A stretch of DNA of 64,000 bases, from positions 246,859 to 310,858 of IMG/VR virus record IMGVR_UViG_3300047558_000137; one strand, 5' to 3'. The notes beneath the pieces were generated by a model that made no database searches, was not told the DNA's origin, and saw only the letters and a list, made by a program, of their open reading frames with translations. Positions 45,735-60,827 of the stretch are shown here, piece by piece; positions within the stretch are counted from its first letter, which is position 1, and each line of letters starts with the position of its first letter. The DNA comes from a virus. The position numbers were made by a program, and so were the translations under genes.

Positions 45735-46586
45735 CTATTTATTATACGGGTATGGCGGTAAGAAATCAATTATCTTCTCACCAGAATTGGCCAATATAAA
45801 GTCTGTGTACTGCCGACAGCTGGCAGGAAAGTAGTTGTCTAGGTCAACTATCTTATATGTAGCATCAGCTGAACGATTCCATTCTTTGCCTTCGGCAATA
45901 CTTTTATCTAAATCAATCTGTGCCAGGAACTCAGGTGTATTGACTTCTGTGTGACTAAAACTCTGTGCTTTATCACGTAGGTAGTCGTTGTCGCCCATGT
46001 AACCAAAATGCCATCCAGCATGTTCAATGACTTCGCAACCTTGGTTCTTGTGTTGATATTCGGCACCAAAGAAGTTAAAACGGAAATTACGCAATTGGTT
46101 AGGTGTTATTTCTTTAAACACACTGCCCCTGCCGGCCATTGCCCAAACATCATAACGTGCTGGCTCAAAGCGCATATAGTTAAATTTAAAGTTGCTTAAT
46201 GTCATACGCATGGCAAAGATTATTTGATCTGATTGGCGTATGTATTCAACTGCTGCCGGACGAGGTATTTCATCAACATCAGATACGATCATAATGTCAT
46301 CATCTTCTGCATCAGTTAGGCAATGCAATATTGCATTACGTTGTGCTTCTTCGTTTACCCATGGATTTGGGTCTCCGGGTAAGTTGACAGGCAAATACCT
46401 AATCTTATCTGCATAAGGTTTAAATCTATCATAATGTTGTGGAAATAACGGAGTGCGAGCACGATTGGTAAATGTACTAGTGCCTTCAACAATGACAAAC
46501 ACATCCACTGTGTTGTATAATTCTTTAAGGCGTATTTCTAATAGATCGAGTTCATTGTAAAATGTAAAGCAGTCAAATATACGCAT
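45735..46586 (-). CDS. glycosyltransferase family 17-like (beta-1,4-N-acetylglucosaminyltransferase-like)
   Basis: N-terminus MRIFDCFTFYNELDLLEIRLKELYNTVDVFVIVEG matches the conserved GT17 start IxDCFxFxNELDxLExRL. Confidence 0.55.
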   Translation of the reverse strand: MRIFDCFTFYNELDLLEIRLKELYNTVDVFVIVEGTSTFTNRARTPLFPQHYDRFKPYADKIRYLPVNLPGDPNPWVNEEAQRNAILHCLTDAEDDDIMIVSDVDEIPRPAAVEYIRQSDQIIFAMRMTLSNFKFNYMRFEPARYDVWAMAGRGSVFKEITPNQLRNFRFNFFGAEYQHKNQGCEVIEHAGWHFGYMGDNDYLRDKAQSFSHTEVNTPEFLAQIDLDKSIAEGKEWNRSADATYKIVDLDNYFPASCRQYTDFILANSGEKIIDFLPPYPYNK

Positions 46587-46623: not shown

Positions 46624-47208
46624 ATGCAACAATTCAATACTCTAGATGGTATCCAGGTTGATGAGGCACACGTGGCCTTAATCAATGGTATCGTCAAAAG
46701 CCAAAAACCTCAACGCATACTAGAATTAGGTTTAGGATCTGGTACTACTACTGATGCAATACTAGAAGCCCTACAGTTTAATCAGCAACCGTTTGAGTTT
46801 ACTCTAGTAGACTTATGGTTAGAACGTGCCTGGGGCGGTGACCCGGATACTATGCGATCGGGCACATGCCCTCCTGAAGCTGTAGAAAAGTACAGCCAAT
46901 ATATCAACATTGTTACCAGTGACGAACGCGAGTATGTATTCAATTGTGGCAAAACATTTGATTTTATCATGAGTGATGCTGATCACCATAATACACAAAA
47001 ATGGTTTGAATACGTCTACGCAGAAGTACTAGAAGCCGGCGGCACGTTAATCTATCATGACGTAACTGACCGTAGCTTTACAAACCTAAGAGAGATATAC
47101 GAAAAATGTAAACTGTTTAATTTACGCTTTACATTGTTCAACAAGAATAGCCGCAGTGACGAACGTTGTGACCGTGGCCTGTTAGTAATCTATAAACCCG
47201 AAGAATAA
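46624..47208 (+). CDS. class I SAM-dependent methyltransferase (O-methyltransferase-like)
   Basis: RILELGLGSGTTTD motif I; 194 aa. Confidence 0.6.
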   Translation: MQQFNTLDGIQVDEAHVALINGIVKSQKPQRILELGLGSGTTTDAILEALQFNQQPFEFTLVDLWLERAWGGDPDTMRSGTCPPEAVEKYSQYINIVTSDEREYVFNCGKTFDFIMSDADHHNTQKWFEYVYAEVLEAGGTLIYHDVTDRSFTNLREIYEKCKLFNLRFTLFNKNSRSDERCDRGLLVIYKPEE

Positions 47209-47217: not shown

Positions 47218-47913
47218 ATGTACGCTGTAGTAAGCATGAGCACCCATAGTATCGCCGACCTGGCAGATCAAACAGATGGACTAAAGAAGGAATACTGTGA
47301 CCATAATGGTTATGAATTCTTTGCTATCAAAGACGAAGACTTTAAAGTATTTACTAAACCATATAGTAGCTTTATGGACTGGAACAAGGCGTTCTACGTA
47401 AACGATTTGCTAAAGTCACGCCCAGACATCGAATGGGTATTGATTAGCGAAGCAGATGCTACTATCACTAACATGACTACACGCATGGAAGATAAAGTTG
47501 ATAACAATTATCACGTTATTATTCCAGTAGACGTAAACAACTTAAACGGCGGTAACTGGTTACTTCGTAATAGCGAAGAAGGTCGTGCTTACATTCAAAT
47601 GATGGTTGATGTTGTTGAGGACTACAGAGAAGATCAAAGTCCTGATGGTAAACTAAAAGACAAATGGGGACTACAACAGGTAATGATTGATACTATTGGT
47701 CAATACGAAGCGATTGTTAAGATTGTTCCACAAAAGCACATGAACAGCTACGAACCAGAAATCTATGACTACTTAGATGTTCGCACAGACATCCTAGGAA
47801 CATCTGGCGTATGGGAAAAGGGCGATTGGATTATTCACTGGCCCGGTATTAGGCACAATGTTCGACTTGATAGAGTTAAACGATTAGAAGACGAACAAAT
47901 GATTGTTCGATAG
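47218..47913 (+). CDS. hypothetical protein (possible nucleotide-sugar transferase)
   Basis: 231-aa ORF with good AAGGA Shine-Dalgarno; co-transcribed with methyltransferase. Confidence 0.45.
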   Translation: MYAVVSMSTHSIADLADQTDGLKKEYCDHNGYEFFAIKDEDFKVFTKPYSSFMDWNKAFYVNDLLKSRPDIEWVLISEADATITNMTTRMEDKVDNNYHVIIPVDVNNLNGGNWLLRNSEEGRAYIQMMVDVVEDYREDQSPDGKLKDKWGLQQVMIDTIGQYEAIVKIVPQKHMNSYEPEIYDYLDVRTDILGTSGVWEKGDWIIHWPGIRHNVRLDRVKRLEDEQMIVR

Positions 47914-47923
47914 TCACAAAAAA

Positions 47924-47947
47924 GCCCGCCTAAGCGGGCTATTTTTT
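47924..47947 (+). terminator. rho-independent terminator (GCCCGC-CTAA-GCGGGC followed by ATTTTTT)
   Basis: Closes the two-gene plus-strand cassette. Confidence 0.7.
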
Positions 47948-48394: not shown

Positions 48395-49018
48395 TTATAA
48401 CGCAGTTGTTGTTTGTAGGTCTAGTAGATATTTGTCCAATGATTCGTTTGGCCAAACATTTTTATAAAATATTAATTTTACCAATCTTTCAGACCTAGAG
48501 AAAAACAATAAACTAGGTATCCATAATACCAAATTTGGGTCTTCATTGATCAGATGGTAACCACGTTCTTTTACAAAACCTGGGTCTGCTTTTATTGCAT
48601 CCTTAATTGGATTATCAATCGACGAATCAGCAAAGTGTACTAGTTTGCCATTTTCAAACAGTGCTTGAAAGTTCCAATATGATGCTAAAAAATTAACATC
48701 ACGATTTGTGATATTTCTTAATTGCTTCAGGTGGGCTATAAATGTCTTGTCACTGTTATATAACAACGGTATTGTTATACCTTCTCTTGCATGGTACGAA
48801 TGTAGCAATGTTTTACCGGTGATACAGTTAATAAAGTAAACTTTATCAATGTGAAGATCGTTTACTTTACTATGTATGTATTGCACATACAGATCGGAAA
48901 TATTATCGTATGGGCGAGTTAGTGAACAAATCAATACTCGCCCATTTGCGGCTATATCCTGAAATTTTATTTGCTTAATATTACCATTGTCGAGATATAA
49001 AAATTCTATATCTTCCAT
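48395..49018 (-). CDS. hypothetical protein
   Basis: 207-aa ORF. Confidence 0.45.
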   Translation of the reverse strand: MEDIEFLYLDNGNIKQIKFQDIAANGRVLICSLTRPYDNISDLYVQYIHSKVNDLHIDKVYFINCITGKTLLHSYHAREGITIPLLYNSDKTFIAHLKQLRNITNRDVNFLASYWNFQALFENGKLVHFADSSIDNPIKDAIKADPGFVKERGYHLINEDPNLVLWIPSLLFFSRSERLVKLIFYKNVWPNESLDKYLLDLQTTTAL

Positions 49019-49028: not shown

Positions 49029-49985
49029 TTATGCTTTTAAAATCCCATTAATTAAACCAGGGGAAAATACATCTTCGTACTTAGTGTACAAAGGCTCAAC
49101 TATATCTCTCATTTTTGCAATTTCGGAATCGCTAAATTTGTAATAGCTAACCCCCAACTCATCATGGCGAGCTTGGTTAACTGCGTAGTCCTCTGCTTCT
49201 GCAACACTTTCTTCGCGTTCACGAACCGCAGCAACACGGGCAGCTTGTCTTACAAATTCTTGATCTTCAGAATCTAAACTATTCCAGAAATCTTTAGAAA
49301 TTAAGATGCTTGTTAAGTACATGCTATGTTTAGTATCAACAATGTGCTTTTGAACAGCGGTATTAGCTTCGTATTCGTAACGTGGTAATGTAGTTTCTAC
49401 TGTGTAACCATTCTTTTGTAATACTTCGCTCTTGGCATCATAGTTACGTGCGCTGATAGCAAGTGGTTCGCATCCAAAAATCTTAGCTGTATCTACCATT
49501 ACTGGGTTTGGTGCAGTAACTAGTTTAATTCCCTTTAAGTCCTCAAAGGAATTAATCTTTTTATCTGACGCTAGGCATCTATACCCGCCACTATATGTAA
49601 ATGCTAGACCATGAACAGGAGTGTTTTTTTGTAGACTATCTAATAGTCCTCGACCAATTTCTCCGTCTAGAACACGAGTTGCATGATCGTGGTCTTTAAA
49701 CAAATATGGCATTTCTAATGCAAAAAAGTCCGGTGCATTCCATACACCAATAAGGTTAGTTTGCATCTGGCTCATTTCTACGTCATTATTTTGTATCAAT
49801 GACAATGGCTCGTGTTTTACGCCATTTTTAAATTTATCTGAATATTCTTCAAGTGTGTACACTTCCACATTGATTCTGTCTCCGGTTAAGCGGGCAATTT
49901 CTTGAGAAAATGCTTTAGCAGTACGGACAAACAAGTGGATAGGTTCGTGATATAATACCCAACGTATTGTGTGATTCTTTTTCAT
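49029..49985 (-). CDS. TRAP-transporter DctP-like solute-binding protein homolog (no signal peptide)
   Basis: VHGLAFTYSGGYRCLASDKKINSFEDLKGIKLVTAPNPVMVDTAKIFGCEPLAIS colinear with DctP GLAFWDNGFK...LKMRIQSS...ALGA.P region; N-terminus lacks secretion signal. Confidence 0.6.
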   Translation of the reverse strand: MKKNHTIRWVLYHEPIHLFVRTAKAFSQEIARLTGDRINVEVYTLEEYSDKFKNGVKHEPLSLIQNNDVEMSQMQTNLIGVWNAPDFFALEMPYLFKDHDHATRVLDGEIGRGLLDSLQKNTPVHGLAFTYSGGYRCLASDKKINSFEDLKGIKLVTAPNPVMVDTAKIFGCEPLAISARNYDAKSEVLQKNGYTVETTLPRYEYEANTAVQKHIVDTKHSMYLTSILISKDFWNSLDSEDQEFVRQAARVAAVREREESVAEAEDYAVNQARHDELGVSYYKFSDSEIAKMRDIVEPLYTKYEDVFSPGLINGILKA

Positions 49986-50025
49986 GTGTGATTTCCTCTG
50001 AATAAGAGCTAAGTCTATAGTGTAT

Positions 50026-50463
50026 TTATATTTTAATTAGATATTCGTAATTAACAGAAGACTCGTTTTCGCGCATAATTATTGCCCCATTTTTTAAATG
50101 GAATCTGCGGGCCATTTCAGTTTTGGGACTTAGAGTAACAAATCTAGTAATAGTTGGGTAGCGGTTGCGTATTTCGTTGACTGTTTCTCTGAGTAGCTCT
50201 ACCCCTGCGCCCGGGGCATAACTCCATATAGTGTAAAAGATTGCTGTAGTTGGTTGCTCAGCATCGCGAGAAAGATCATCAACATCTGCTGGTACAAAGT
50301 CATGCAGACTAACACAAACGATTGCTCTAGGTTTTTCATCGACTAACGCACTAATAAACCTTTTACCTTGTACACGAAACTCTGCAGGAATTTCAGGGCG
50401 AACGGGGTCGTCCTTTATGTAGGAAAGTATTGGGCTTTGTGGGTCAGTGATAATCGATAGCAT
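50026..50463 (-). CDS. hypothetical protein (possible GNAT-fold)
   Basis: 145-aa ORF; weak acetyltransferase-like YTIWSYAPGAGVELL. Confidence 0.3.
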   Translation of the reverse strand: MLSIITDPQSPILSYIKDDPVRPEIPAEFRVQGKRFISALVDEKPRAIVCVSLHDFVPADVDDLSRDAEQPTTAIFYTIWSYAPGAGVELLRETVNEIRNRYPTITRFVTLSPKTEMARRFHLKNGAIIMRENESSVNYEYLIKI

Positions 50464-50508: not shown

Positions 50509-51135
50509 TTATGTAAGGGTTGTTAATACATATGGCCAACATAAAGGGCCGGGTTTCGTAACAGGACCGGTCAATCGTTGATGTGCTGTATACCAACTTT
50601 TATGTATTAATTTTGCATCATCAAAGTTTATATTGAAGTTACCATAATGGCATATCTGAGAATAAAGTAATTCATCTAGATCTTCAGTGTATAAATCTGC
50701 TGTATCAAGTAAAAGTCCAGAGCAATTGCCTACATATAATTCTGCTTGTTGACGTTCATACCGCACTGTATTGAAGTATAAGTTTCGATCTACATGTGTG
50801 AATTTTTTATATAAGTCTAATGTCACCAGTGGATCTGTTGGATATAAGAAATAGTTAACATTGCTATCAAATTGCCCTGGTCTATTTTCCCACCCCGGGT
50901 CAAAATTGGTATGAGCAAATTTAATCTGTTCATTTAAGACCTGTCTATACTTAAACTCATAACTAAACCAATTTTTACAGTTACGCTCTGCAGGATAAAC
51001 ATTTGACAGTATATAGTCAACTTTATCCGCAACAGGGCCACGATCAAAAAGAAGAAAACCGGGGTCGAGTAGTAGCAACCACCTTAAATGATTACCACAC
51101 CCGCCCCGGCAACTATGCACAATAGCACGATGCAT
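50509..51135 (-). CDS. hypothetical protein
   Basis: 208-aa ORF, stop/start overlap with phosphoesterase. Confidence 0.45.
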   Translation of the reverse strand: MHRAIVHSCRGGCGNHLRWLLLLDPGFLLFDRGPVADKVDYILSNVYPAERNCKNWFSYEFKYRQVLNEQIKFAHTNFDPGWENRPGQFDSNVNYFLYPTDPLVTLDLYKKFTHVDRNLYFNTVRYERQQAELYVGNCSGLLLDTADLYTEDLDELLYSQICHYGNFNINFDDAKLIHKSWYTAHQRLTGPVTKPGPLCWPYVLTTLT

Positions 51136-51740
51136 TACATTGTAGGCCCATTGCCATTACGCATACCAACTGTACCACCTTCTGCTGTAATGCGCTTGAT
51201 GACATCTTCAAACAGGATGGGAGCGAAGTCCGGGGTCTGTTCTACACACACGCAGTGGTAGCGGACATCGTTCTCATTACTGTACAAGACTTCACCGGTT
51301 TTGACATTATATCCACGCATCTTCTTTACACGATTAGTATGCAAGTGTCCGTGAATGTTCGTGCCAAAGCGGCCCAACGAAGCTTCGTGTACCGGAATAT
51401 GACTAAGAATCATTCCGTTCATTACATGGTATGCACGTAGTTCACGAAAGTATTCACGATATTCTTCATCACGAAAGATATCATGGTTGCCACGGATCAA
51501 GACTTTATCACCGTTTAGGCGGGCAAGCGTTTTCAAAGCCCGTCTATTGATAACAACATCGCCTAGGTGATAGACTTTGTCGTTGGGCCTTACACGGTCA
51601 TTCCAGGCCTTGACCATGGCTTCATCCATTTCATCCGGATCTGTCCACGGACGTATTTTTGTAACACCGTCCGCTTCAGTAAAGCGACATACACCGGCAT
51701 GGCCAAAGTGCGTATCGCTAACTAAGAATACTGCTGGCAT
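51135..51740 (-). CDS. calcineurin-like metallophosphoesterase
   Basis: DTHFGH, GDVV, GNHD, ...GHLH motifs in canonical order. Confidence 0.8.
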   Translation of the reverse strand: MPAVFLVSDTHFGHAGVCRFTEADGVTKIRPWTDPDEMDEAMVKAWNDRVRPNDKVYHLGDVVINRRALKTLARLNGDKVLIRGNHDIFRDEEYREYFRELRAYHVMNGMILSHIPVHEASLGRFGTNIHGHLHTNRVKKMRGYNVKTGEVLYSNENDVRYHCVCVEQTPDFAPILFEDVIKRITAEGGTVGMRNGNGPTM

Positions 51741-51822
51741 ATTCGCCTCCTTTCTGTTGCAATGACTTATTATAGCACAATTTTAAGTCAAAAAAAAGTA
51801 GTACTTAGGTACTACTTGTGTT

Positions 51823-51896
51823 TGGAGCGGGATAGCGGAATCGAACCGCTGACTTGAACTTGGAAGGATCTCGTTTTACCATTAAACTAATCCCGC
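51823..51896 (-). tRNA. tRNA, probably Gly(TCC); anticodon stem imperfect
   Basis: Cloverleaf with T-arm AGCGG-TTCGATT-CCGCT, acceptor GCGGGAT/ATCCCGC, encoded CCA; loop CTTCCAA but only 3/5 stem pairs. Confidence 0.6.
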
Positions 51897-51903
51897 ATAA
51901 ACT

Positions 51904-51978
51904 TGGTACCTTGTGACAGTTTCGAACTGCCGACCCTCTCGGTGTAAACGAGACGCTCTACCCCTGAGCTAACAAGGC
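51904..51978 (-). tRNA. tRNA-Val(TAC)
   Basis: GCCTTGT-TA-GCTCAGGGGTAGAGC-G-TCTCG-TTTACAC-CGAGA...TTCGAAA; CCA encoded. Confidence 0.8.
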
Positions 51979-52081
51979 AACTATTTTTTGTACTCTTGCA
52001 AGTACTGATTTCTTTTTGAAATCTTTTTATATCTACTTCCTTTGCCTTTACTACCAAAGTTTTCTGTTTGACTATGGCAAA

Positions 52082-52157
<76 letters not shown>

Positions 52158-52161
52158 CATA

Positions 52162-52238
52162 TTGGTTGCAGAGGCTGGATTCGAACCAGCGGCCTCCAGG
52201 TTATGAGCCTAGCGGGATGACCAACTTCCCTACCCTGC
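52162..52238 (-). tRNA. tRNA-Met(CAT), initiator-like (C1 opposite A72)
   Basis: CGCAGGG...CTAGG-CTCATAA-CCTGG...GCTGGTTCGAATCCAGC-CTCTGCA-A-CCA; unpaired 1:72 is the bacterial initiator hallmark. Confidence 0.75.
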
Positions 52239-52246
52239 GTCAATAT

Positions 52247-52882
52247 TTATACCAGCTGCTCTGCTACTAACAGAGAAACTGTATCAGCATCCAATTCGAT
52301 TTCGGTGCGAACATTAAGTTCCAACACCCGATCATTGATGCTTTGTTTTTCTTTTTTCAGGCTACGCATTTCTGCCTTGTAACCTTCAATTTGTTCTGCT
52401 GTCAACACGCCAGTGTCAACTGTGTCGCTGTACCCATACATACGGGTCTTTGAATCGCTGTCGCGAAGTTTCCGCAACTTGCCAGACAACACTTTTTCCG
52501 ATTCAACAACTTTGCCTTCGGTTAGGCTTTTTAGTTGGCCAATACGCTTATCAACGTAAGCGGCTTCTGTGAGCAAGTCTGCTACACCACTTGCGGCATT
52601 AGCACGACCAACTTGGGCACGAATTGCGTACAAGGCCTTTGTCAGCTTGTTACGGCGTGCATCGTTAGCAACAACGCCTTCACGAGCACAAGCCAACTCT
52701 TTAGCTGGATCCTGGAACTCGTTTAGTGAAAACGATGTAGTCACTTCAATGGTTTTTGTGTGTTCCTGGATTGTGTTTTGTAATGCGTTTGCTTTGCGAA
52801 GTGTAATCTTCATAATCGAGTCCCTTTCTGATTGAATTATAGCAGTGAGCGTATGGCAAGTCAATTGCCGGACAATGTGCAA
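52247..52882 (-). CDS. hypothetical coiled-coil protein (start possibly at internal MKITLRK)
   Basis: 211-aa ORF directly downstream of tRNA-Met. Confidence 0.45.
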   Translation of the reverse strand: MHIVRQLTCHTLTAIIQSERDSIMKITLRKANALQNTIQEHTKTIEVTTSFSLNEFQDPAKELACAREGVVANDARRNKLTKALYAIRAQVGRANAASGVADLLTEAAYVDKRIGQLKSLTEGKVVESEKVLSGKLRKLRDSDSKTRMYGYSDTVDTGVLTAEQIEGYKAEMRSLKKEKQSINDRVLELNVRTEIELDADTVSLLVAEQLV

Positions 52883-53108
52883 AATACATTAGCGGTTAGA
52901 CATTTTTAGGCGCCTAAATTACTAAAGCAAAATACAAGAGACAGAGGATACCAATATTCGTGAGTGTCAACAAACAAGGCAATTACGCCGGGGTCTCACA
53001 TCACTGGATCACGATTGTTAATGCAATATTTCCGTTCAAGGGAATATTACGGTGCAATCTCTCATCTCCATACACATCACCGTCCTGTTTTAATAAACAG
53101 GCAAAATC

Positions 53109-53291
53109 TTAACAATGTTCTTTAAACAACGCCTTGCGCTTTTCTTGGCCCAATGTGTTATCTAAAACATCTTTGCATCTATTCATCATACCAAAACATA
53201 AAATCAATAACTCATTCTGGTCATCGCACATCATAATCTGCTGTTCGATGGGTTGCATAAGTTCTTTTAATTTTTGATCAATAGGATGCAT
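53109..53291 (-). CDS. small hypothetical protein (track ORF 53109-53366 runs into tRNA-Cys; shortened to internal Met)
   Basis: MHPIDQKLKELMQPIEQQIMMCDDQNELLILCFGMMNRCKDVLDNTLGQEKRKALFKEHC. Confidence 0.3.
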   Translation of the reverse strand: MHPIDQKLKELMQPIEQQIMMCDDQNELLILCFGMMNRCKDVLDNTLGQEKRKALFKEHC

Positions 53292-53296
53292 AAACT

Positions 53297-53372
53297 TGGA
53301 GCACGGTGTAGGAGTTGAACCTACCTCATACCGGGTTTGCAATCCAGCGCATAACCGCTCTGCCAACCGTGC
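53297..53372 (-). tRNA. tRNA-Cys(GCA)
   Basis: GCACGGT...D-loop AGCGGTTA identical to E. coli tRNA-Cys, loop TTGCAAA, T-arm GTAGG-TTCAACT-CCTAC, CCA encoded. Confidence 0.75.
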
Positions 53373-53504
53373 ATAATTCTTTGTTTAGTGGGCTACCCCT
53401 CATGTTCTCTTACTCTTGGGTAACGTGACCAGATCGCATAGCACCGAAGAACAATCCGTACTATACTAGGCTCCCTCGCTAAAGGCATCACTAAACAAAA
53501 ACTT

Positions 53505-53596
53505 ATATGTAAACACACTACCACGGCGTTATACTGCTGTATCGCAAGCAATACTACCATGTCTACCCATTGTGCATGTAATGTGTTTGCATATAA
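53505..53596 (-). repeat. copy A of about 90-nt conserved hairpin element (arms ATGTAAACACACT / AATGTGTTTGCATAT)
   Basis: Second copy at 56129-56207 abuts the 3' end of tRNA-Lys; arms are inverted repeats of each other, inner region partly conserved (AATACTACC / AGTATTGCTACC). Confidence 0.55.
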
Positions 53597-53597
53597 G

Positions 53598-53670
53598 TGG
53601 AGGACTGAGATTACATCTCTCCCAATAGCACCTCGAGCATTATACTGCACCTTGCGAGCACAGCTTCTCT
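53598..53670 (-). pseudogene. degenerate tRNA-like remnant (3' end CTCAGTCCTCCA resembles tRNA-Lys 3' end) attached to repeat copy A
   Basis: No canonical T-loop; same junction with the hairpin element as the intact tRNA-Lys copy. Confidence 0.25.
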
Positions 53671-53928
53671 CGACATCCACGGTAACCCTTGCGGTATTAC
53701 TGTCTGCTATCAGCATCGCCGTTTTTAACGTCAGGCAGTAGACGTGTCGCTATCAGCTACTCTGTACCTTATTTCCCGTTGACCTTTAGAGCCATTCACA
53801 GTCGCTAAACTGTTACGAAACTTCTAGTACAAACCAATTTCACCTTGCGAGTTACGTTGGACTTGATTCACTTGCGTGTCAAGCATTAGATGCTTTTCAC
53901 TGATAACCGTGTCAGACTTTGCGTTTTT

Positions 53929-54000
53929 CGATGTTAGCTGGGATCGAACCAGCAGTCTATTTCTTAGAAGGAAATCGGCCTACCATTAGCCTATAACAAC
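53929..54000 (-). tRNA. tRNA-Arg(TCT), no encoded CCA, one acceptor mismatch
   Basis: GTTGTTA-TA-GGCTAATGGTAGGCC-G-ATTTC-CTTCTAA-GAAAT...GCTGGTTCGATCCCAGC-TAACATC. Confidence 0.6.
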
Positions 54001-54735
54001 CTACTATGATGAGCTGACACAGTTGATCCATACACTTTTGGTATACAGAATACAACTCACCACGTACCTTTCCTCTCGCGGAGTAATCAGTCGTTTTTTG
54101 CGATCAATGTCTACGCTAACACGTAACCACCAACCACTCAAACTGCACTACAACCCTTAGGAGCGACCCCTCGGATCATAACGCTACCCTTTCTCATACT
54201 AACTGACAAGTTGGTTTTGCTGTGAAGTCGGCACCACCCGTTACTTTCCACACACCCGAGTTCCCTTTGATGCGATCTCTGGCTCGACGATATGCGTTCT
54301 TCCCACAGCACTTGCTTCATTGTTACATCCACCGGTCTTATCAGTGAACGCTACCTCACGGTAGTGAGCAGGCTTGCTTAAATGAACTATTGCTAGCGGA
54401 GTTGCGTAGGCTTACCTCCTTTGGCTGTGTCACCACAGTTATTCTTTGTCTAGCCGGGCGAACCGACTCTACAGGACATTAAGCTGCCCTTAAATTCTTA
54501 TACAACTGCACACTCACAGGAATTGAACCTGTCTACCTGGCGACCATTTGTTCATCCAGGCTGCAATCCGCTACATCTGCGTGGCCTACGCATTTGTGTG
54601 CATGTGTATAAGAACTTCTTATACTTTAACTTTTTAAAGAACATTTTCGTCAGTTATTGCTAACTGTCTAAGTATCTATTGTTACATAAAAAACATTTAT
54701 TGTCAACTGTTTTTTAGATAAAAATAAAAATATTT

Positions 54736-54810
54736 TGGTCCGGCGTGCAGGAATCGAACCCACATTCGCGAGGTAGAAGCTCGCTGTATTATCCATTATA
54801 CTAACGCCAG
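54736..54810 (-). tRNA. tRNA-Arg(TCT), second copy; paralogous to tRNA-Arg(ACG) at 58222
   Basis: CTGGCGT-TA-GTATAATGGATAATAC-A-GCGAG-CTTCTAC-CTCGC...GTGGGTTCGATTCCTGC-ACGCCGG-A-CCA. Confidence 0.75.
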
Positions 54811-54830
54811 TTAGATATAAGTATTATACT

Positions 54831-55385
54831 ATGAGTCACCTTTATAGCCAAGAATTAAAAACATGGAACGAGCATCTTTTTCAAAGTGACTACGGCTGGG
54901 GCAACAATCAAACGTACCTCTTTCCACTTAATGCCGATACCATACTAAAAGATAACGACATTATAAAGCTAATTAAACCAAAATCAATATTAGATTATGG
55001 TTGCGGTAATGGTTTAGTATTACAAAATATTTGTCAAACTTTCCCTCATATACACGCTGTTGGCTATGACCCTTTTGTAGGAAAATACGCAGAATTTCCA
55101 CAAGGTGAGTTTGATCTAGTGTTGTCCTACCATGCAATTAACAACGTTGAGTATGACTACTGGGACGAGACCATCTCTAAGTTACAACAACTCTGCAAGT
55201 CTAATGCATTTTTTAAAGTAGTCCTAACTGGCCGATATCCAGAAAGAACCTTTAGCTGGTACAATGACGAATTTAGCAAATATTTTAAGATACGGCGTAG
55301 TTTCCATGACACTATTCCAACTACACGAAGCTCGGTGTTTGAAAACAAGACGGTGTTCTTTGGAACATTTTGGCTTACTAGATAG
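54831..55385 (+). CDS. class I SAM-dependent methyltransferase
   Basis: ILDYGCGNGLVLQNI motif I, acidic motif II GYDPF; only plus-strand gene inside the tRNA island. Confidence 0.65.
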   Translation: MSHLYSQELKTWNEHLFQSDYGWGNNQTYLFPLNADTILKDNDIIKLIKPKSILDYGCGNGLVLQNICQTFPHIHAVGYDPFVGKYAEFPQGEFDLVLSYHAINNVEYDYWDETISKLQQLCKSNAFFKVVLTGRYPERTFSWYNDEFSKYFKIRRSFHDTIPTTRSSVFENKTVFFGTFWLTR

Positions 55386-55468
55386 TGGTACCCCCGGTCA
55401 GATTCGAACTGACATATTATACTCCTCTGTTTGAGAGAGGCGACTTTACCAAATTTGTCCACAGGGGC
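55386..55468 (-). tRNA. tRNA-Leu(CAA), class II long variable arm
   Basis: GCCCCTG...CCTCT-CTCAAAC-AGAGG plus 12-nt variable arm, GTCAGTTCGAATCTGAC, CCA encoded. Confidence 0.75.
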
Positions 55469-55474
55469 ATTTAT

Positions 55475-55550
55475 TGGTGGCAAGGACTGGGGTCGAACCA
55501 GTGACACACGGATTTTCAATCCGCTGCTCTACCAACTGAGCTACATTGCC
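55475..55550 (-). tRNA. tRNA-Phe(GAA)
   Basis: GGCAATG-TA-GCTCAGTTGGTAGAGC-A-GCGGA-TTGAAAA-TCCGT...ACTGGTTCGACCCCAGT; CCA encoded. Confidence 0.8.
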
Positions 55551-55752
55551 ATATAGAAGCACTCTCAAATGCAGGCCTAGGAGGAGTCAAGCTCTGAAAC
55601 CGTTGCGTATGCATCCACTTGGGTCTCATCTCCCGCTTTGTCTTACGCCAAGAATACTTCTATATGAGCTCCACCGTTAACTGACGCTTGTCCTAGCTTT
55701 ATTTTGTGTCGGTTAATGCACGGTGGACACACATGCCGACAGATTTTTATGC

Positions 55753-55833
55753 GAACTCATTGTAGGCAGGACTCGAACCTGCAAGCGGCGACGGCTAGTC
55801 CCCGATGTCTACCAATTTCATCACTACGAGTTC
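55753..55833 (-). pseudogene. tRNA-like sequence with canonical T-arm (GCAGGTTCGAGTCCTGC) but non-canonical acceptor/anticodon geometry
   Basis: Could be a degenerate or interrupted tRNA; not foldable by hand into a standard cloverleaf. Confidence 0.3.
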
Positions 55834-56128
55834 CTGGAGTTAATTACTCCCCAGTATGGATGTTACCTGCAGATAACATTAACCATATAAAAGACAACTA
55901 CGAATATTGTGTTGCTAGCCCGGCGTTGGTCGCGAAAACCCTTTCCTTGCTACTTGGCACAATAGACTTCCAAACTACTTAGGCGCCGGCCGACGTTTTA
56001 TTTCGTAAGTTAATTGTCTTTTATATGGCGGTACATGAGTTAACCTAAAGCTAGTCTAATATCGTGGCCACAATATTTCGTCTATGTCTTAGGATATACA
56101 CGTTGGTACCTTGCGTACCTCACGCACC

Positions 56129-56207
56129 ATATGTAAACACACTGACTCTCCAGTATTGCTACCTTCACCGAGTTTGACGTCTTAGGTCGTGCAATGTGTT
56201 TGCATAT
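56129..56207 (-). repeat. copy B of the about 90-nt hairpin element, immediately 3' of tRNA-Lys(TTT)
   Basis: ATGTAAACACACT ... AATGTGTTTGCATAT, same arms as copy A. Confidence 0.55.
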
Positions 56208-56282
56208 GGTAGGACTGCCCGGACTCGAACCGGGAATTGACGGATTAAAAGTCCGCTGTGATAACCATTTCACTACAATCCC
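56207..56282 (-). tRNA. tRNA-Lys(TTT)
   Basis: GGGATTG-TA-GTGAAATGGTTATCAC-A-GCGGA-CTTTTAA-TCCGT...CCCGGTTCGAGTCCGGG; CCA encoded. Confidence 0.8.
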
Positions 56283-56286
56283 ATAT

Positions 56287-56361
56287 TGGTCCCTAACGAA
56301 GGATTCGAACCTTCAACTCGAGGATTAAGAGTCCTGTACGTTACCATTACGCCAGTTAGGG
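56287..56361 (-). tRNA. tRNA-Lys(CTT) (tentative anticodon)
   Basis: CCCTAAC-TG-GCGTAATGGTAACGT-A-CAGGA-CTCTTAA-TCCTC...GAAGGTTCGAATCCTTC-GTTAGGG-A-CCA. Confidence 0.65.
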
Positions 56362-56454
56362 TTAGTGTATTACGTTTTGTTTAACGTGCTAACCCAGACC
56401 AATACGGGATCTGAGTCAACACTAACGTTTACCACGTTTCATGTTGTTCTCCTG

Positions 56455-57078
56455 TTACATGTTTTTAAATTGAATTGTTCGCCAAGACTCAGGGTCTGGC
56501 TGCTCGTTTTCATCGTATGTCCAACCTAGTGCTTTCATCATCTTGTGCTTAACACGCAAGTTAGGAATACGAGTCTTTTCAGTGTCCTGAAAGCCCATCA
56601 TAATCCCAACTTCCGCTACTGCACCACTACGACACAAGCCAGCCATACAGTGTACTACAACACCCATTTTATTGTCAAGTGCATGTTGCAAGAGTCGCAC
56701 AATTTCTTGTGCTTGCTCATCGCTAATTTTACACTCTTCTGGGAAGTTATCCCGATCCTCAACATCCAGAAACTCAAACCTATGTGTTTCTTTAAATTTG
56801 TGTACTGGTGTGGGCCACCAGCTGGTAGCTGTATCCATGATTTGGATAAGCATACTATTCTCCCCGCAGTCATGATGAAAGCGAGCGGGAATATCGGCAG
56901 CAGCCACATTTTCGATAAAAGGCATCATACATCCTTCATTACTTGATAGAGAACAAACATTATAACACATACCAGAATTAGTACACTCATTGATGTTCTC
57001 CTTTTTGTTGGTGCCCCAGGTCGGACTCGAACCGACACGCCTCACAGCAATGGTTTCTAAGACCATCGTGGCTACCAT
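56455..57078 (-). CDS. dual-specificity (Cys-based) protein/RNA phosphatase
   Basis: Active-site VVHCMAGLCRSGAV (HCx5R P-loop) with upstream Asp; 207 aa. Confidence 0.75.
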   Translation of the reverse strand: MVATMVLETIAVRRVGSSPTWGTNKKENINECTNSGMCYNVCSLSSNEGCMMPFIENVAAADIPARFHHDCGENSMLIQIMDTATSWWPTPVHKFKETHRFEFLDVEDRDNFPEECKISDEQAQEIVRLLQHALDNKMGVVVHCMAGLCRSGAVAEVGIMMGFQDTEKTRIPNLRVKHKMMKALGWTYDENEQPDPESWRTIQFKNM

Positions 57079-57092
57079 TACACCACCGGGGC
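57009..57092 (-). tRNA. tRNA-Leu(TAG), class II
   Basis: GCCCCGG...ATGGT-CTTAGAA-ACCAT plus long variable arm, GTCGGTTCGAGTCCGAC, CCA encoded. Confidence 0.75.
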
Positions 57093-57106
57093 AGATAAAT
57101 ACTTAC

Positions 57107-57661
57107 ATGAAATTCTCTGAAATTATACAAGAAGCCCGTAACCCAGAATGGGAATACGAAGACTTTGAAAACAAAGTGATCCTACGTTTAGAAGGGTACG
57201 ATAGTCAATTTGTGACTAAACTTGCTAAATCTTTCCAAGACGTTGCTGAAGCAAAAGAAAAACTAGCTGCTCTTGAAGAAATTCATAAGCAACAGATACG
57301 TGATCTACACGAATTGTTTGATGCTGCTGATGCGCTTAAAACTCGAGAAATTGAAACAAAGAGTCTTGTTGTACAAATTAGTAAAGACCCAGCTCCTACT
57401 AAAACTCCAAAGTATAAAGAAATCTTAACTCAAATCATGACACACATGAATCCTGAGTTATTAGCAATGACTAAAAGTTTAATTGAAACTATTGTAACTG
57501 TTGTACAAAAGCCCGCGGGCGTAAAAGTTAAACCACTCGATGAGAGTACAATGAATGCCCTACTTGCATTTGCACATCAAGTAAAAGCCAAAGTACTTAA
57601 CTGGGCTAATAGTTACGATCAGAAGTTGTTAATGTTAAAAAACGCGATAGCGCGAGCTTAA
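57107..57661 (+). CDS. hypothetical coiled-coil protein (track ORF 56990-57661 trimmed to Met after the tRNA)
   Basis: MKFSEIIQEARNPEWEYEDFENKVILRLEGYD... Confidence 0.4.
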   Translation: MKFSEIIQEARNPEWEYEDFENKVILRLEGYDSQFVTKLAKSFQDVAEAKEKLAALEEIHKQQIRDLHELFDAADALKTREIETKSLVVQISKDPAPTKTPKYKEILTQIMTHMNPELLAMTKSLIETIVTVVQKPAGVKVKPLDESTMNALLAFAHQVKAKVLNWANSYDQKLLMLKNAIARA

Positions 57662-58129
57662 ATTACTTTTGTCTTTAACCATGCGGTCAAATTGGCCGCT
57701 GCGTCCATCCATATAAAACCCACTAGGATCTAAAATACGTCCACGTATTTCTACCCAACTGTGTGGTATCCAACGAAACTCATCTTCTAAGTTGTTGTTC
57801 TTTATATAGGCAACACGATCCGACTTTTTACGTGGATCTAGCTGTTGCTCACGCATGGCTAATACGTCTTTCTTTTCAAGTGCATCATATGATGTATCTG
57901 CTACATCAACATAGATCCACCCGCCGGATTTGCGTCCGTTGTGTACACGCCCAATTGGAACTATTTCTGCATTACCGTATCCTTGATTACTTAGAAAGTC
58001 TTCAAAGTCTTGGCTTGCCCCAAAGCAGTTATCTTGTACAAAATAATACTGCATCTGCTCAGGACTTGCCTGACGCCAGAAGTCTACTAGCAATGGGTCA
58101 AAAGATTGTGTAAATTCAAAAAGGCGCAT
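57635..58129 (-). CDS. hypothetical protein
   Basis: 164-aa ORF. Confidence 0.45.
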   Translation of the reverse strand: MRLFEFTQSFDPLLVDFWRQASPEQMQYYFVQDNCFGASQDFEDFLSNQGYGNAEIVPIGRVHNGRKSGGWIYVDVADTSYDALEKKDVLAMREQQLDPRKKSDRVAYIKNNNLEDEFRWIPHSWVEIRGRILDPSGFYMDGRSGQFDRMVKDKSNLSSRYRVF

Positions 58130-58139
58130 AGTATATTTA

Positions 58140-58214
58140 TGGGTTGACGTATGAGAATCGAACTCATGATAGCGGAATCACAACCCGCGGTTTTGCCATT
58201 AAACTAACGCCAAC
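58140..58214 (-). tRNA. tRNA-His(GTG) with genomically encoded G-1
   Basis: G-TTGGCGT...GCGGG-TTGTGAT-TCCGC...ATGAGTTCGATTCTCAT-ACGTCAA-C-CCA; G(-1) opposite C73. Confidence 0.8.
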
Positions 58215-58221
58215 ATAAAAC

Positions 58222-58296
58222 TGGAGCCGCTGTATGGAATCGAACCACAATTCCCACGTTCGTAGCGTAGTGTATTATCCATTATACTACAGCGAC
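58222..58296 (-). tRNA. tRNA-Arg(ACG)
   Basis: GTCGCTG-TA-GTATAATGGATAATAC-A-CTACG-CTACGAA-CGTGG...TGTGGTTCGATTCCATA; CCA encoded. Confidence 0.8.
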
Positions 58297-58302
58297 ATTA
58301 TT

Positions 58303-58378
58303 TGGTGCTCCTAGATGGAGTCGAACCATCGACTTCTCCTTACCATGGAGATGTTTTACCGTTTCAAACTATGGGAGC
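58303..58378 (-). tRNA. tRNA-Thr(GGT)
   Basis: GCTCCCA-TA-GTTTGAAACGGTAAAAC-A-TCTCC-ATGGTAA-GGAGA...GATGGTTCGACTCCATC; CCA encoded. Confidence 0.75.
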
Positions 58379-58479
58379 ATGATGCTCTGTGGGCTGTCCA
58401 CTCAAGTCCGAGCAAGACATACGTTAGTATGTTATATTTCGTCTAACGTACATTCCGGTTACGCCGGTTCGTTGAAAAC

Positions 58480-58556
58480 TGGTCGGCCCTAGAGGATTCG
58501 AACCTCTAACCAACGATTTCGAAGACCGCTACTCTATCCAGTTGAGCCAAGGGCCG
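58480..58556 (-). tRNA. tRNA-Arg(TCG) (tentative)
   Basis: CGGCCCT-TG-GCTCAACTGGATAGAGT-A-GCGGT-CTTCGAA-ATCGT...AGAGGTTCGAATCCTCT-AGGGCCG-A-CCA. Confidence 0.65.
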
Positions 58557-59706
58557 AGAATGTTACATCCAATGTGTGCTTCTTCATAATAGCCTGAAAG
58601 TCTTCAAACTTATCAGCTTTTGGCGCACAGTATCCGCACAAACACGATGATTTCTTACATTGTATAACTGGCTTAATTTCATTAGAAAGCAAATTTAATT
58701 GATCATCTAATATAGCCTGATAGTTTGACAAATTACCAATGGGTTTTGTGGTGCCATTGAAGTTCATACGACAGTCTTTGTTGTAATATACATTACCGTT
58801 AACTTGTTTGATATACAAAAAATACCAATTAACACTACAGTACCAATCAAAGAATCCTGCTTCGGGCATAAATGCCACAGGATGTTTTAAATCTTGATTG
58901 CCACATAACTTGCGGCCACCACAACAACTACGACCAACATTGCCCATCCCAACTGTTTCAGACTCAACTGCATCCATTACATCGCCAATAATGTATCTAC
59001 TGCGAGCAACAGTATTAGATTGATAATACTCTTTAAAGAATACAAATTGTTCTTTAGTATATTGCCATCCTGGTCCCGGGTAATCGTTAGCTTTGATTAC
59101 ATACTTAATATTTTGTTGTTTACAAAACTCTACTGCCGATTGACTAATATCCCATTTATCAGGATCATTATGCATAACAAAAACAATCTTTTGTCTACGA
59201 TCAATTGATTTATTGTACAAAATATTATCAAATATCTGCCGACGCTGTTTAGGTAATGCTGTACTATGAAAACTAATTGTAAATTCATCAATTAAATTTG
59301 CGACTTGTTTCCATAACACTGGGCCTGCTACTGCATTGGTTGTGCATGTCACTGTCAGTGGCCAACGATCTGCATACTTCTTGTGCCTAACACGAACTTG
59401 TTCTAATATTTCAACAATGTTGGGATGAAAAATGCTTTCGCCGCCATAGACATTTAAGATAACCATACGTTGCCACGCAGGCTTTAGTTGCATGTATCGA
59501 TCAGCATACTCATACATAAAGTCGATTGTACGCAAACAATCTTCTAACGGTGGGTGCTGAGTGCTGTTATCATGTCCACCTGTTTCAATATCATTTAAAC
59601 AATAGTCGCAATCTAAATTGCACTTCATTGTTAATTCCCAATCTAATAGAAAGGTGGGTCTATTAGACGGGTCAATGGCCGGTTCAATTGAAATGATTTT
59701 TTTCAT
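58534..59706 (-). CDS. radical SAM domain protein (with additional C-terminal Cys clusters)
   Basis: CNLDCDYC (CxxxCxxC) near N-terminus; further CCGGRKLC and CKKSSCLCGYC clusters at C-terminus suggest auxiliary Fe-S (SPASM-like) sites. Confidence 0.7.
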   Translation of the reverse strand: MKKIISIEPAIDPSNRPTFLLDWELTMKCNLDCDYCLNDIETGGHDNSTQHPPLEDCLRTIDFMYEYADRYMQLKPAWQRMVILNVYGGESIFHPNIVEILEQVRVRHKKYADRWPLTVTCTTNAVAGPVLWKQVANLIDEFTISFHSTALPKQRRQIFDNILYNKSIDRRQKIVFVMHNDPDKWDISQSAVEFCKQQNIKYVIKANDYPGPGWQYTKEQFVFFKEYYQSNTVARSRYIIGDVMDAVESETVGMGNVGRSCCGGRKLCGNQDLKHPVAFMPEAGFFDWYCSVNWYFLYIKQVNGNVYYNKDCRMNFNGTTKPIGNLSNYQAILDDQLNLLSNEIKPVIQCKKSSCLCGYCAPKADKFEDFQAIMKKHTLDVTFSALGSTG

Positions 59707-59711
59707 ATAAA

Positions 59712-59789
59712 TGGTCGGAGTTGAGGGATTCGAACCCCCGACCCTCTGGTCCCAAACCAGATGCGCTAGCCAGACTGCGCTAAACTCCG
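59712..59789 (-). tRNA. tRNA-Pro(TGG)
   Basis: CGGAGTT-TA-GCGCAGTCTGGCTAGCGC-A-TCTGG-TTTGGGA-CCAGA...GGGGGTTCGAATCCCTC; CCA encoded. Confidence 0.8.
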
Positions 59790-59793
59790 AAAC

Positions 59794-59884
59794 TGGTGGA
59801 AAGCGTGGGAATCGAACCCACTGACCTGCTCATCACAAGTCTACACCTTAGCAGGGTGCTGCATTACCGGCCTGCCCGCTTTCC
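59794..59884 (-). tRNA. tRNA-Ser(GCT), class II with 6-bp variable stem
   Basis: GGAAAGC...GCACC-CTGCTAA-GGTGT, variable arm GACTTG-TGATGAG-CAGGTC, GTGGGTTCGATTCCCAC; CCA encoded. Confidence 0.75.
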
Positions 59885-59900
59885 TAATTTTGGTGGAGAG

Positions 59901-60287
59901 TTAACGTTTTAACCCTCTGGCTGTTCTTCCTTTGCCTTTATTTTTAGCAACAAACGTATCTGTTTGACTATGACAATTAGGACATAACAGTCTTAAATTC
60001 TTTGGCTTATCATTTCCTGCATTACCATCTATGTGATCTAATTGTAACACAAGAGGTCTATTTTTGTGAGTCCCAGTGTTGCCACACTCAATGCATTTAT
60101 ACCCATGAAGATGTGTTAAACATCTTATAAGAGTTCTTCTAGTAGAAATTTCTCCCTTTAAAAACTTTGGTAATGTTTCTGTTTTAAACTGAAATTGTTG
60201 TTGGCAAGTATTATTGCAAAACTTATTTGTGTGATTTCGTTTTACTATATTCTCTTTGCCGCAGCATAAACAATTGAAATTATTCAT
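59901..60287 (-). CDS. HNH endonuclease (homing-endonuclease-like), paralog 1
   Basis: N-terminal Cys-rich zinc finger (CLCCGKE...CNNTCQ), C-terminal LQLDHIDGNAGNDKPKNLRLLCPNCHSQT HNH motif. Confidence 0.75.
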   Translation of the reverse strand: MNNFNCLCCGKENIVKRNHTNKFCNNTCQQQFQFKTETLPKFLKGEISTRRTLIRCLTHLHGYKCIECGNTGTHKNRPLVLQLDHIDGNAGNDKPKNLRLLCPNCHSQTDTFVAKNKGKGRTARGLKR

Positions 60288-60304
60288 AATGTAGTCCTCT
60301 ACAT

Positions 60305-60312
60305 TATTTATA
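60305..60312 (-). promoter_or_regulatory. TATAAATA late-promoter-like box upstream of HNH gene
   Basis: Minus strand reads TATAAATA 18 nt upstream of the ATG at 60287; spacing short, so tentative. Confidence 0.25.
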
Positions 60313-60336
60313 CAGAACTCTACATTTTTAAGTAGT

Positions 60337-60411: not shown

Positions 60412-60464
60412 GAATTCGTGACAGACTACTTATCTCATTATACTCCGCCTGTCAGGGAGAGTTT

Positions 60465-60540: not shown

Positions 60541-60626
60541 GAAATACTTCCAACTGTTAGCTTACGCTCTCTCCGTTGGCGATTGAGCAGCCGACATTCT
60601 TAAAGTCTTCTCGGAACTGACTTGTT

Positions 60627-60822: not shown

Positions 60823-60827
60823 ATATT

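Follow-up and report, generated by a model that had tools for sequence, protein, structure and literature searches.

What does a phage gain from a gene for the binding protein of a membrane transporter when that protein carries no signal for export? The question is raised by a stretch of 64,000 nucleotides from IMG/VR virus record IMGVR_UViG_3300047558_000137 (positions 246,859 to 310,858), called the window in what follows, whose own numbering is used throughout. By current understanding, TRAP (tripartite ATP-independent periplasmic) binding proteins shuttle their ligands in the periplasm and are defined by an arginine clamping the carboxylate of the ligand. The gene at 49029-49985 belongs to a phage clade, hundreds strong, that breaks both of these rules and yet is strongly conserved and locked to the gene of a second 'disarmed' protein. 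The reading preferred here, quite possible and held tentatively, is that the DctP-like protein serves as a cytoplasmic, repurposed binding module together with a peroxiredoxin-like partner, and not as the subunit of a transporter. The features on which the argument turns are these:

49029-49985, minus strand: leaderless gene of the DctP/TRAP-binding-protein fold, 318 residues, member of the phage 'subfamily I', with V156 at the selectivity-filter arginine column (Pfam, AlphaFold2 (AF2), Foldseek, alignment to VcSiaP, column table of 118 relatives)
49994-49998, minus strand: Shine-Dalgarno-like GAGGA, 8 nucleotides 5' of the DctP-like ATG, read directly from the sequence
48395-49018, minus strand: partner gene, 207 residues, peroxiredoxin-like, no conserved cysteine, starting 10 nucleotides past the DctP-like stop

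The open reading frame (ORF), which starts with ATG, coincides exactly with that given in a preliminary description of the locus, where the product had been called a homolog of DctP-type TRAP binding proteins, and this assignment was borne out. Pfam PF03480 (DctP) matches the 318-residue protein with an E value of 1.6e-40 (139.7 bits at a cut-off of 23.4, profile positions 9-284 of 286) and NCBIfam NF037995 TRAP_S1 with 105.6 bits (cut-off 50), whereas the stricter TIGR00787 dctP model leaves it below the cut-off (102.8 vs 175.05 bits). A sequence search of the PDB retrieved 75 TRAP binding proteins at E<=1e-3. The AF2 model, calculated with 33 homologs as input, reached a predicted local distance difference test score (pLDDT) of 92.4 and a predicted template modelling score (pTM) of 0.90, and Foldseek placed SiaP and other TRAP binding proteins at the top of its PDB matches (E 1e-26 to 1e-22), with template modelling (TM) scores of 0.74-0.83, the best of them 0.76-0.83 over the full length. 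The comparison with SiaP that had been proposed earlier thus confirmed the TRAP fold, at a TM score of about 0.8, and membership of the DctP/TRAP solute-binding-protein superfamily is unambiguous, far beyond chance; the model displays the two-lobe, type-II binding-protein fold with its long spanning helix. Next to the characterized proteins (SiaP, PDB 2cex and 7a5q; Pput_1203, PDB 4xfe), the predicted two-domain fold is the same over its full length (TM 0.76-0.83) at a sequence identity of 17-25%. Kept are the motif PYLF-x-DHDH, an arginine at the position of SiaP R127, the histidine in T-x-H and the long C-terminal helix. Unlike the DctP-type proteins, the window protein is phage-encoded, has no signal peptide, carries valine for R147 and threonine for N187, lacks DctQ/M partners, and shows W9, H13, R21 and R202 as new invariant residues.

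The lack of a signal peptide, and with it a cytoplasmic location, had already been proposed in the preliminary description, which pointed to an upstream alternative start as the way in which a leader might have been overlooked. Neither a signal peptide nor a lipobox was recognised at the N-terminus by hydropathy, alignment, the AF2 model or the upstream reading frame. Over the first 40 residues the highest Kyte-Doolittle mean of any 10 residues is 0.73, as against 2.0-3.4 for the leaders of the bacterial relatives, and in the AF2 model the first beta-strand of the fold begins at residue 5. An in-frame stop lies 17 codons 5' of the ATG, and the codons separating the two include no ATG, GTG or TTG, so that an upstream start or a concealed leader is ruled out. 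In the absence of an export signal the protein should remain in the cytoplasm.

The same picture emerges from the relatives, for which signal peptides were judged by simple heuristics of our own, namely hydropathy and alignment (with the AF2 model added for the window protein). Each of 18 homologs that were read starts with the leaderless motif M-x(3-6)-[IV][RK]W.L.HEP, or holds it just behind a brief stretch of over-called residues. Among library representatives clustered at 50% identity (128 clusters, E<=1e-30), the alignment begins at residue 1-7 of the nearest matches and at residue 20-45 of more distant ones. Among 88 proteins from viral or metagenomic loci not one genuine signal peptide was found, the three flagged cases being over-extended ORF calls with a methionine just before the motif. 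Of the genome-derived relatives, 34 out of 52 have a hydrophobic N-terminal extension, and 29 a classical signal peptide or lipobox by a stricter criterion; a Bacteriovorax contig of 1.8 Mb (L108 in our numbering of loci, L001 onwards) encodes, for example, MRLMILAVFSLFSIASLQAKEG...KIKWVLAHEP. An internal control is provided by the TctC-like and TAXI-like binding proteins of related viral contigs, which do carry clear signal peptides, and in L158 and L159 such leader-bearing proteins are encoded on the same contigs as DctP-like genes of the window's clade. Because these controls have leaders, the missing one looks like a specific, real feature of the DctP-like protein and not like an annotation artefact. 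In a rough neighbour-joining tree the leader-bearing bacterial proteins are basal or intermediate, and the leaderless ones fall into two mainly viral clades.

The second departure concerns the ligand clamp. Arg-147 of HiSiaP, the SiaP of H. influenzae, clamps the ligand carboxylate; 98% of DctP-type binding proteins possess it, and high-affinity function depends on it (Fischer et al., PMC4646407). In a phmmer alignment to VcSiaP, the V. cholerae protein (PDB 7a5q), R125 corresponds to R136 of the window protein, R145 (HiSiaP R147) to V156, and N185 (HiSiaP N187, the asparagine of 'QENPLP') to T198. Alignments to 4xfe, 4pdd and 4p47 return the same change of K-[IV]-R to K-L-V at the filter arginine, and BLASTP against HiSiaP agrees that the R147 equivalent is lost; the numbering of the HiSiaP query proved self-consistent (A11, R127, R147, N150, F170, N187). 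The second carboxylate ligand of SiaP, R127, is thus kept as R136, and N187 is changed to T198; neither residue is universal in the DctP family. Here the preliminary description does not hold: the conserved carboxylate-binding arginine, whose loss it had itself named as counting against it, is gone, only the R127 equivalent is kept, and the canonical ligands that it had suggested (C4-dicarboxylate, sialic acid or an ectoine-type compound) are unsupported, with V156 for R147 and T198 for N185/N187.

That the loss is a property of the clade is indicated by the alignment of 118 distinct relatives. The R147 column holds A, G, V, I, T or Y in all 25 distinct sequences of subfamily I, to which the window protein belongs, and arginine in 100% of subfamily II, the sister leaderless clade (52 sequences); most of the secreted Bdellovibrionota relatives have arginine there as well. 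Some genomes hold both Arg-keeping and Arg-less copies, as in L159 (6562-7506 and 10001-10960). Invariant across the approximately 118 proteins are W9, H13, Q73, H99, H101, Y131, R202, H220, E256 and R257, and nearly so R136 and T199; of the positions that contact the ligand in SiaP, A11, R127 and N187 align with H13, R136 and T198, respectively. Taken together, these alignments suggest that the cleft has been remodelled rather than abandoned.

The third hallmark, a DctQ/M membrane partner, is missing too, as the preliminary description had stated. No DctQ or DctM family is reported for the window, which spans 64 kb of a 374-kb contig, either in the scan of the neighbouring genes or among the best 25 of the 36 families matched by 55 further ORFs; a DctM match would rank high. 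A protein that fails three TRAP hallmarks (export signal, R147, DctQ/M) should not be annotated for 'C4-dicarboxylate transport', and the evidence favours the alternative that the preliminary description had also offered, a repurposed binding module.

Two findings go beyond that description: the large size of the phage family, and an obligate pairing with the gene at 48395-49018. In 34 of 35 leaderless, Arg-less loci a homolog of the partner lies directly 3' of the DctP-like gene on the same strand, separated by -23 to +71 nucleotides, while among the Arg-keeping relatives the count is 0 of 89; the pairing is strict. Of the 34 paired loci, 32 came from clustering and two were added via tblastn, one at a contig end and one with a split ORF. 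The partner family evolves fast, and single-sequence search returned 5 homologs where a profile returned 48. Many of these are named 'peroxiredoxin' by the Joint Genome Institute (JGI), and one family member is matched by Pfam Redoxin at E 0.011. An AF2 model of the partner, with only five close homologs as input, reached pLDDT 49; the top 40 or so Foldseek matches of this poor model are all peroxiredoxins or related redoxins, with E >= 3e-3 and TM 0.3-0.4. The arrangement of secondary structure (beta-hairpin/beta-alpha-beta/beta-beta-alpha) and motifs like those of Prx5 point, with the weak sequence and fold matches, to a peroxiredoxin/thioredoxin fold (Prx5/Ahp1, AhpC). Unlike peroxiredoxins, however, the partner has neither a conserved peroxidatic nor a resolving cysteine, and the form found in the window carries some 60 extra residues at its C-terminus. 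Among 25 distinct members no cysteine column is conserved and the peroxidatic cysteine of the PxxxT/SxxC motif is absent; peroxidase chemistry is therefore unlikely. The GC content of both genes is somewhat below average (0.379 for the DctP-like gene and 0.325 for the partner, vs 0.418 +/- 0.031 for 20 long ORFs).

How widespread the family is can be judged from a search of 5.8 billion proteins, which gave 891 matches at E<=1e-5; the best 120 measure 228-351 residues, most of them 310-326. Full-length homologs number in the hundreds at 45-72% identity, with 44 invariant columns, and IMG/VR holds 363 confirmed matches; strong conservation and phage context of the gene are matters of observation. 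Contigs that carry homologs reach 360 kb. In isolate phages the family was not found: tblastn against 50,697 phage records gave matches of <=30% identity, mainly in records that look bacterial or like contaminants, and a megablast of 6 kb against sequenced phages matched tRNA genes only. A search of one genome per GTDB species returned 74 matching stretches, mostly from metagenome-assembled genomes (MAGs) of Bdellovibrionota (Bacteriovorax, Pseudobdellovibrio and others) and Elusimicrobiota. 'Viral' status is taken from IMG/VR and gene content, and phages binned by mistake may account for some of the MAG contigs. The 25 distinct subfamily I sequences all come from viral or metagenomic loci and all are leaderless. 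The nearest cellular relatives are secreted proteins with the motif W-x-L-A-H-E-P, at 26-45% identity (e.g., L108, L104, L143), and a leaderless subgroup is also present on bona fide Bdellovibrionota contigs. Some phages carry two to four DctP-like paralogs, in tandem or nearby (L033, L015, L008, L011, L068/L069, L159). Domain fusions were not found among the long representatives, which turned out to be a tandem duplication or over-called starts. A search of the literature on phage-borne or leaderless DctP homologs, viral TRAP auxiliary genes and DUF2061 brought nothing relevant, 'DctP' colliding with 'dCTP'.

The secreted relatives from Bdellovibrionota and Elusimicrobiota share W9, H13, Q73, Y131, R202, E256-R257 and mostly R136 with the phage protein, and likewise have no adjacent DctQ/M; they differ in their signal peptides or lipoboxes, in the arginine that most of them keep at the R147 column, and in having no peroxiredoxin-like neighbour. 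Subfamily II, found in viral contigs of T4-like and jumbo type as well as in some chromosomes of Bdellovibrionota, is leaderless, of equal length and built on the same invariant core as the window's clade, but retains the R147 equivalent in 100% of its members and is never accompanied by the peroxiredoxin-like gene; its neighbours are instead PP-loop (SGGxDS), DUF2061, TctA/TctC-like and BKACE/SDR/AMP-binding genes, or a major facilitator superfamily (MFS) transporter with a 204-residue protein.

Among these recurrent neighbours of subfamily II, two families of approximately 375-430 residues with the SGGxDS PP-loop motif (clusters c1 and c4, in many IMG/VR loci) stand out, with members at the following sites:

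L157, 4827-6122: PP-loop protein
L158, 7859-8989 and 16068-17189: PP-loop proteins
L159, 5226-6410 and 16464-17687: PP-loop proteins

They have no match in Pfam and no sequence match in the PDB, only motif-level PHROG matches (QueC-like, PAPS-reductase), and in phage contigs their genes repeatedly adjoin TctC-like or DctP-like genes; they are probably novel adenylating enzymes. Other recurrent neighbours of this subfamily are an 85-residue DUF2061 membrane protein, a secreted TctC-like protein, BKACE, SDR, AMP-binding, 2-oxoglutarate (2OG) oxygenase and radical-SAM proteins. A carnitine-type pathway (2OG oxygenase, SDR, BKACE), considered for subfamily II, is not applicable to the window, and a sulfur or sulfonate theme (a weak sulfotransferase match of the 208-residue protein of the window, DUF2061, TauT-type ABC) was dropped as unsupported.

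Complete transporters also occur among the relatives. In L048 (5106-7238), and with the same genes in L050, a TctA protein (Pfam 1.2e-35) and a leader-bearing protein of 276 residues are encoded a few genes from the DctP-like gene, and in L059 (4284-5681) and L070 (8296-10567) a DctM-type permease (Pfam 1.7e-52) is found with a leader-bearing TAXI-like protein near a T4-like terminase; this sole DctM is thus paired with a TAXI-like binding protein of its own. Phage-borne uptake systems of the tripartite tricarboxylate transporter (TTT) and TAXI-TRAP types seem to be little described. Near clade-I genes a scan over 79 viral loci found no multi-helix membrane proteins. In the Bdellovibrionota the genes of secreted homologs adjoin AMP-binding, MBOAT, SGNH/DltD-like or NitT/TauT-type ABC genes, or methylmalonyl-CoA mutase with MeaB-like genes. 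DctQ/M was never found beside them, which identifies them as an orphan periplasmic TRAP-binding-protein family in predatory bacteria. The AMP-binding/MBOAT/SGNH set (L103, L106, L107, L112, L114, L122, L131, L136 and L154) resembles Dlt or alginate-acylation systems, and the NitT/TauT-type ABC transporter brings its own NMT1-like binding protein. Leaderless Bdellovibrionota genes follow directly after an MFS transporter in L090, L093, L094, L096, L101 and L137, with a 204-residue protein in between in L090, L101 and L137. The same 204-residue family, which occurs in some phage loci as well, has an HxD...H pattern and no Pfam match, and may be cupin-like or 2OG-oxygenase-like. The recurrent pairing with unrelated transporters (MFS in Bdellovibrionota, TctA in phages) and putative carboxylate-activating enzymes (PP-loop ATPases, AMP-binding) suggests that the leaderless DctP-like family handles a ligand inside the cell.

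Against this background the preferred reading, a cytoplasmic binding module with a peroxiredoxin-like partner, can be spelled out. The phage clade has lost the leader that directs its bacterial relatives to secretion, along with the selectivity-filter arginine, and has gained its obligate downstream neighbour. During infection the two proteins would be made from one transcript and act jointly in the cytoplasm, the flytrap closing on a small, probably anionic ligand without the R147 clamp, through the cleft residues H13, Q73, R136, T198/T199 and R202. The ligand might then be held or passed on, with the peroxiredoxin-like protein as co-receptor or acceptor. Retained binding of a ligand, its identity and fate, and a physical interaction of the two proteins are what we infer. 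A more far-reaching version, in which flytrap and partner, retuned by removal of the arginine filter, would trap small molecules in the cytoplasm as a class of phage proteins not seen before, capturing a host metabolite or an immune or signalling molecule, is distinctly improbable.

Several points weigh against the binding module as proposed. The peroxiredoxin fold of the partner is weakly supported, by a model of pLDDT 49, a Foldseek E value of about 3e-3 and a Pfam E value of 0.011, and strict adjacency can reflect inheritance as one cassette without physical contact. Residues G55, K57, A163, A172, E180, Y204 and N216 are fixed in subfamily II and free in subfamily I; such relaxation at seven positions alongside the loss of R147 could mean that small-molecule binding has been abandoned rather than retuned. 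The status of the DctP-like 'pocket residues' rests on the SiaP alignment and not on model coordinates. For the relatives, ORFs were called in all 157 loci and then clustered, the gene calls, leader calls and tree being simple heuristics of our own. Finally, the transporter and PP-loop genes typical of the relatives' surroundings number zero in the 64-kb window. A homolog search of the window for PP-loop, TctC, DUF2061, BKACE, 204-residue-protein and AMP-binding genes found none, and extension past its limits via the edge genes led to other, shorter contigs without transporter or PP-loop genes.

Relaxed constraint at positions fixed in the sister clade, and the loss of an arginine conserved at 98%, would equally suit a ligand-independent new function, in which flytrap and partner form a protein-binding scaffold, inhibitor or mimic directed at a host or phage macromolecule. 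Both proteins look 'dead' for their families (no filter arginine, no peroxidatic cysteine), and two to four tandem paralogs, as seen in some phages, are common for host-interaction genes. This explanation is nevertheless considered unlikely, given that the cleft-aligned H13, Q73, R136, T198/T199 and R202 are still invariant across the clade, that no target is indicated and that PADLOC gave no match. The same invariance bears on the idea that a binding-protein fold has become an enzyme. Type-II periplasmic-binding-protein folds have turned into enzymes before (THI5, MqnA, HisG, cyclohexadienyl dehydratase), and a cleft catalysing a metabolite reaction, perhaps within the nearby glycan- and nucleotide-modification islands, would fit the invariant polar residues at cleft positions (H13, Q73, R136, R202, E256, R257), the relatives set amid biosynthetic genes (PP-loop ATPases, AMP-binding, BKACE, SDR, radical SAM, 2OG oxygenase) and the sugar-modification genes that adjoin the unit in the window. 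Yet ordinary TRAP binding proteins, which catalyse nothing, share several of the invariant residues (the H99/H101 region, H220 and, less consistently, E256-R257); the protein shows no recognisable catalytic motif, and the flanking biosynthetic genes vary while the peroxiredoxin-like gene alone is constant, which leaves the enzyme quite improbable. If the pair were instead a sponge that soaks up a host signal or an essential metabolite (e.g., a nucleotide-derived immune messenger), as a flytrap analogue of Tad1/Tad2/Acb2, it would be natural for a cytoplasmic fold of high-affinity binders to be phage-specific, widespread, sometimes multi-copy and tied to no single pathway, and sequestration works without a membrane partner. 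This case is circumstantial, however: there is no likeness to known sponges, the genes lie outside any recognisable anti-defence island, and leaderless relatives are found in bacterial chromosomes beside MFS transporters, all of which reduces the sponge to a slim chance.

The two remaining explanations fare worse. A component of extracytoplasmic transport might still reach the periplasm by non-classical export or by release on lysis and feed a TRAP or TTT permease of host or phage, like cyanophage PstS; the ancestors of the family were secreted, and full TTT and TAXI-TRAP transporters lie a few genes from leaderless DctP-like genes in related viral contigs. Those transporters have leader-bearing binding proteins of their own, however, whereas the DctP-like proteins of the same contigs never bear a leader; the fold of the window protein begins at residue 5, the high-affinity arginine is absent, and the window yielded no permease gene. 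A transport role is accordingly very unlikely. That a host transporter gene was captured and is now decaying, without current function, could be read from the lack of leader, filter arginine and membrane partners and from the slightly low GC of the pair, but it is hardly credible for an intact ORF with hundreds of full-length homologs, 44 invariant columns and a confident AF2 model, in a gene order with the partner that is kept across otherwise different phages. Both explanations conflict with the leaders found on the control proteins of related contigs, with the loss of the arginine and with the strength of the conservation.

It is instructive to set the binding module beside other solute-binding proteins that act outside the usual context. 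Cyanophage PstS is a phage-encoded periplasmic binding protein, an auxiliary metabolic gene product that is exported and feeds a membrane transporter. Like PstS and the TctC-like and TAXI-like phage proteins, the window protein stems from a cell-derived solute-binding gene residing in a phage; unlike them, it lacks a signal peptide. For the orphan binding proteins of the TTT (Bug) type, which have no cognate membrane component nearby, a role in signalling or otherwise outside transport has been discussed (PMC5812351); they differ from the window protein in being periplasmic and of another family (TctC). Should the phage proteins still bind a ligand, viruses would be re-using high-affinity receptors intracellularly, and the clade would offer a natural experiment on how the fold recognises ligands without the arginine; should binding be lost, it would be a case in which part of a transporter has come to serve as a protein scaffold. 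Were the trap reading to prove true, it would be the first 'sponge' of solute-binding-protein fold, widespread in uncultivated jumbo phages. In either event the two genes form a common, unannotated cassette, whose DctP-like gene annotation pipelines would label 'C4-dicarboxylate transport' and miscount as an auxiliary gene for uptake. The phage TTT/TAXI-TRAP transporters and the unclassified PP-loop enzymes are flagged as well.

In the window the cassette is embedded in a putative transcription unit, of which the minus-strand block reads metallophosphoesterase, 208-residue protein, MCD-like protein, DctP-like protein, 207-residue partner and a 53-residue ORF:

51796-51817, minus strand: terminator-like hairpin just 3' of a tRNA-Gly gene, upstream edge of the unit
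51135-51740, minus strand: metallophosphoesterase, first gene of the unit (Pfam Metallophos 5.8e-7; phrog_547 3.6e-47)
50509-51135, minus strand: 208-residue protein, its start overlapping the phosphoesterase stop
50026-50463, minus strand: 145-residue protein resembling the C-terminal domain of malonyl-CoA decarboxylase (MCD), 5' of the DctP-like gene (Pfam MCD 1.6e-8)
47923-47940: bidirectional, GC-rich terminator-like hairpin between convergent blocks, downstream edge of the unit, 7-bp perfect stem with 6 GC pairs

The hairpin at 47923-47940, which has T-runs on either strand, is likely to be a bidirectional terminator. The 145-residue MCD-like gene is kept only in the closest relatives, at the same place in L001 and L002, with homologs in L006 and L020 as well. 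The 208-residue protein has no significant family match (sulfotransferase domain at E 0.2, besides matches at chance level), NCBIfam gave nothing informative for the proteins of the unit, and PADLOC returned 0 matches for the six of them.

The source of the window is a jumbo phage. A protein identical to the DctP-like one is on record on a contig of 374,314 bp, and the window codes for tail fibres, DnaB-type and other helicases, primase, DNA polymerase, GroEL/GroES and NifU. Next to the unit lies an island of sugar-nucleotide and glycosyl- and methyltransferase genes, at about 37.5-47.9 kb, in which three genes were located:

45735-46586: GT17
46624-47208: methyltransferase
47218-47913: GT34

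Detected in the window without assigned positions were UDP-galactopyranose mutase, GDP-mannose dehydratase/epimerase and a C-methyltransferase. Islands of this kind flank the cassette in L001, L003 and L157 also.

On the other side of the unit, 27 tRNA genes that cover most amino acids follow one another on the minus strand (51823-63191), with small ORFs between them, among which are:

58534-59706: radical-SAM protein
59901-60287 and 60828-61214: two HNH-like ORFs of 128 residues
62725-63111: RF-1-domain (peptidyl-tRNA-hydrolase-like) ORF of 128 residues

A 118-residue ORF at 51887-52243 on the minus strand shares its sequence with four tRNA genes (Gly, Val, Gly, Met) and is almost certainly spurious; ORFs of the same spurious kind from related loci cluster with it. 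Elsewhere the window encodes a NifU-like scaffold and an IscA-type protein of Fe-S biogenesis, a pirin/cupin and an SPFH/Band-7 protein. Its tail fibres contain collagen repeats and Mtd_N domains; genes of this set were noted in L161 (5769-6459) as well.

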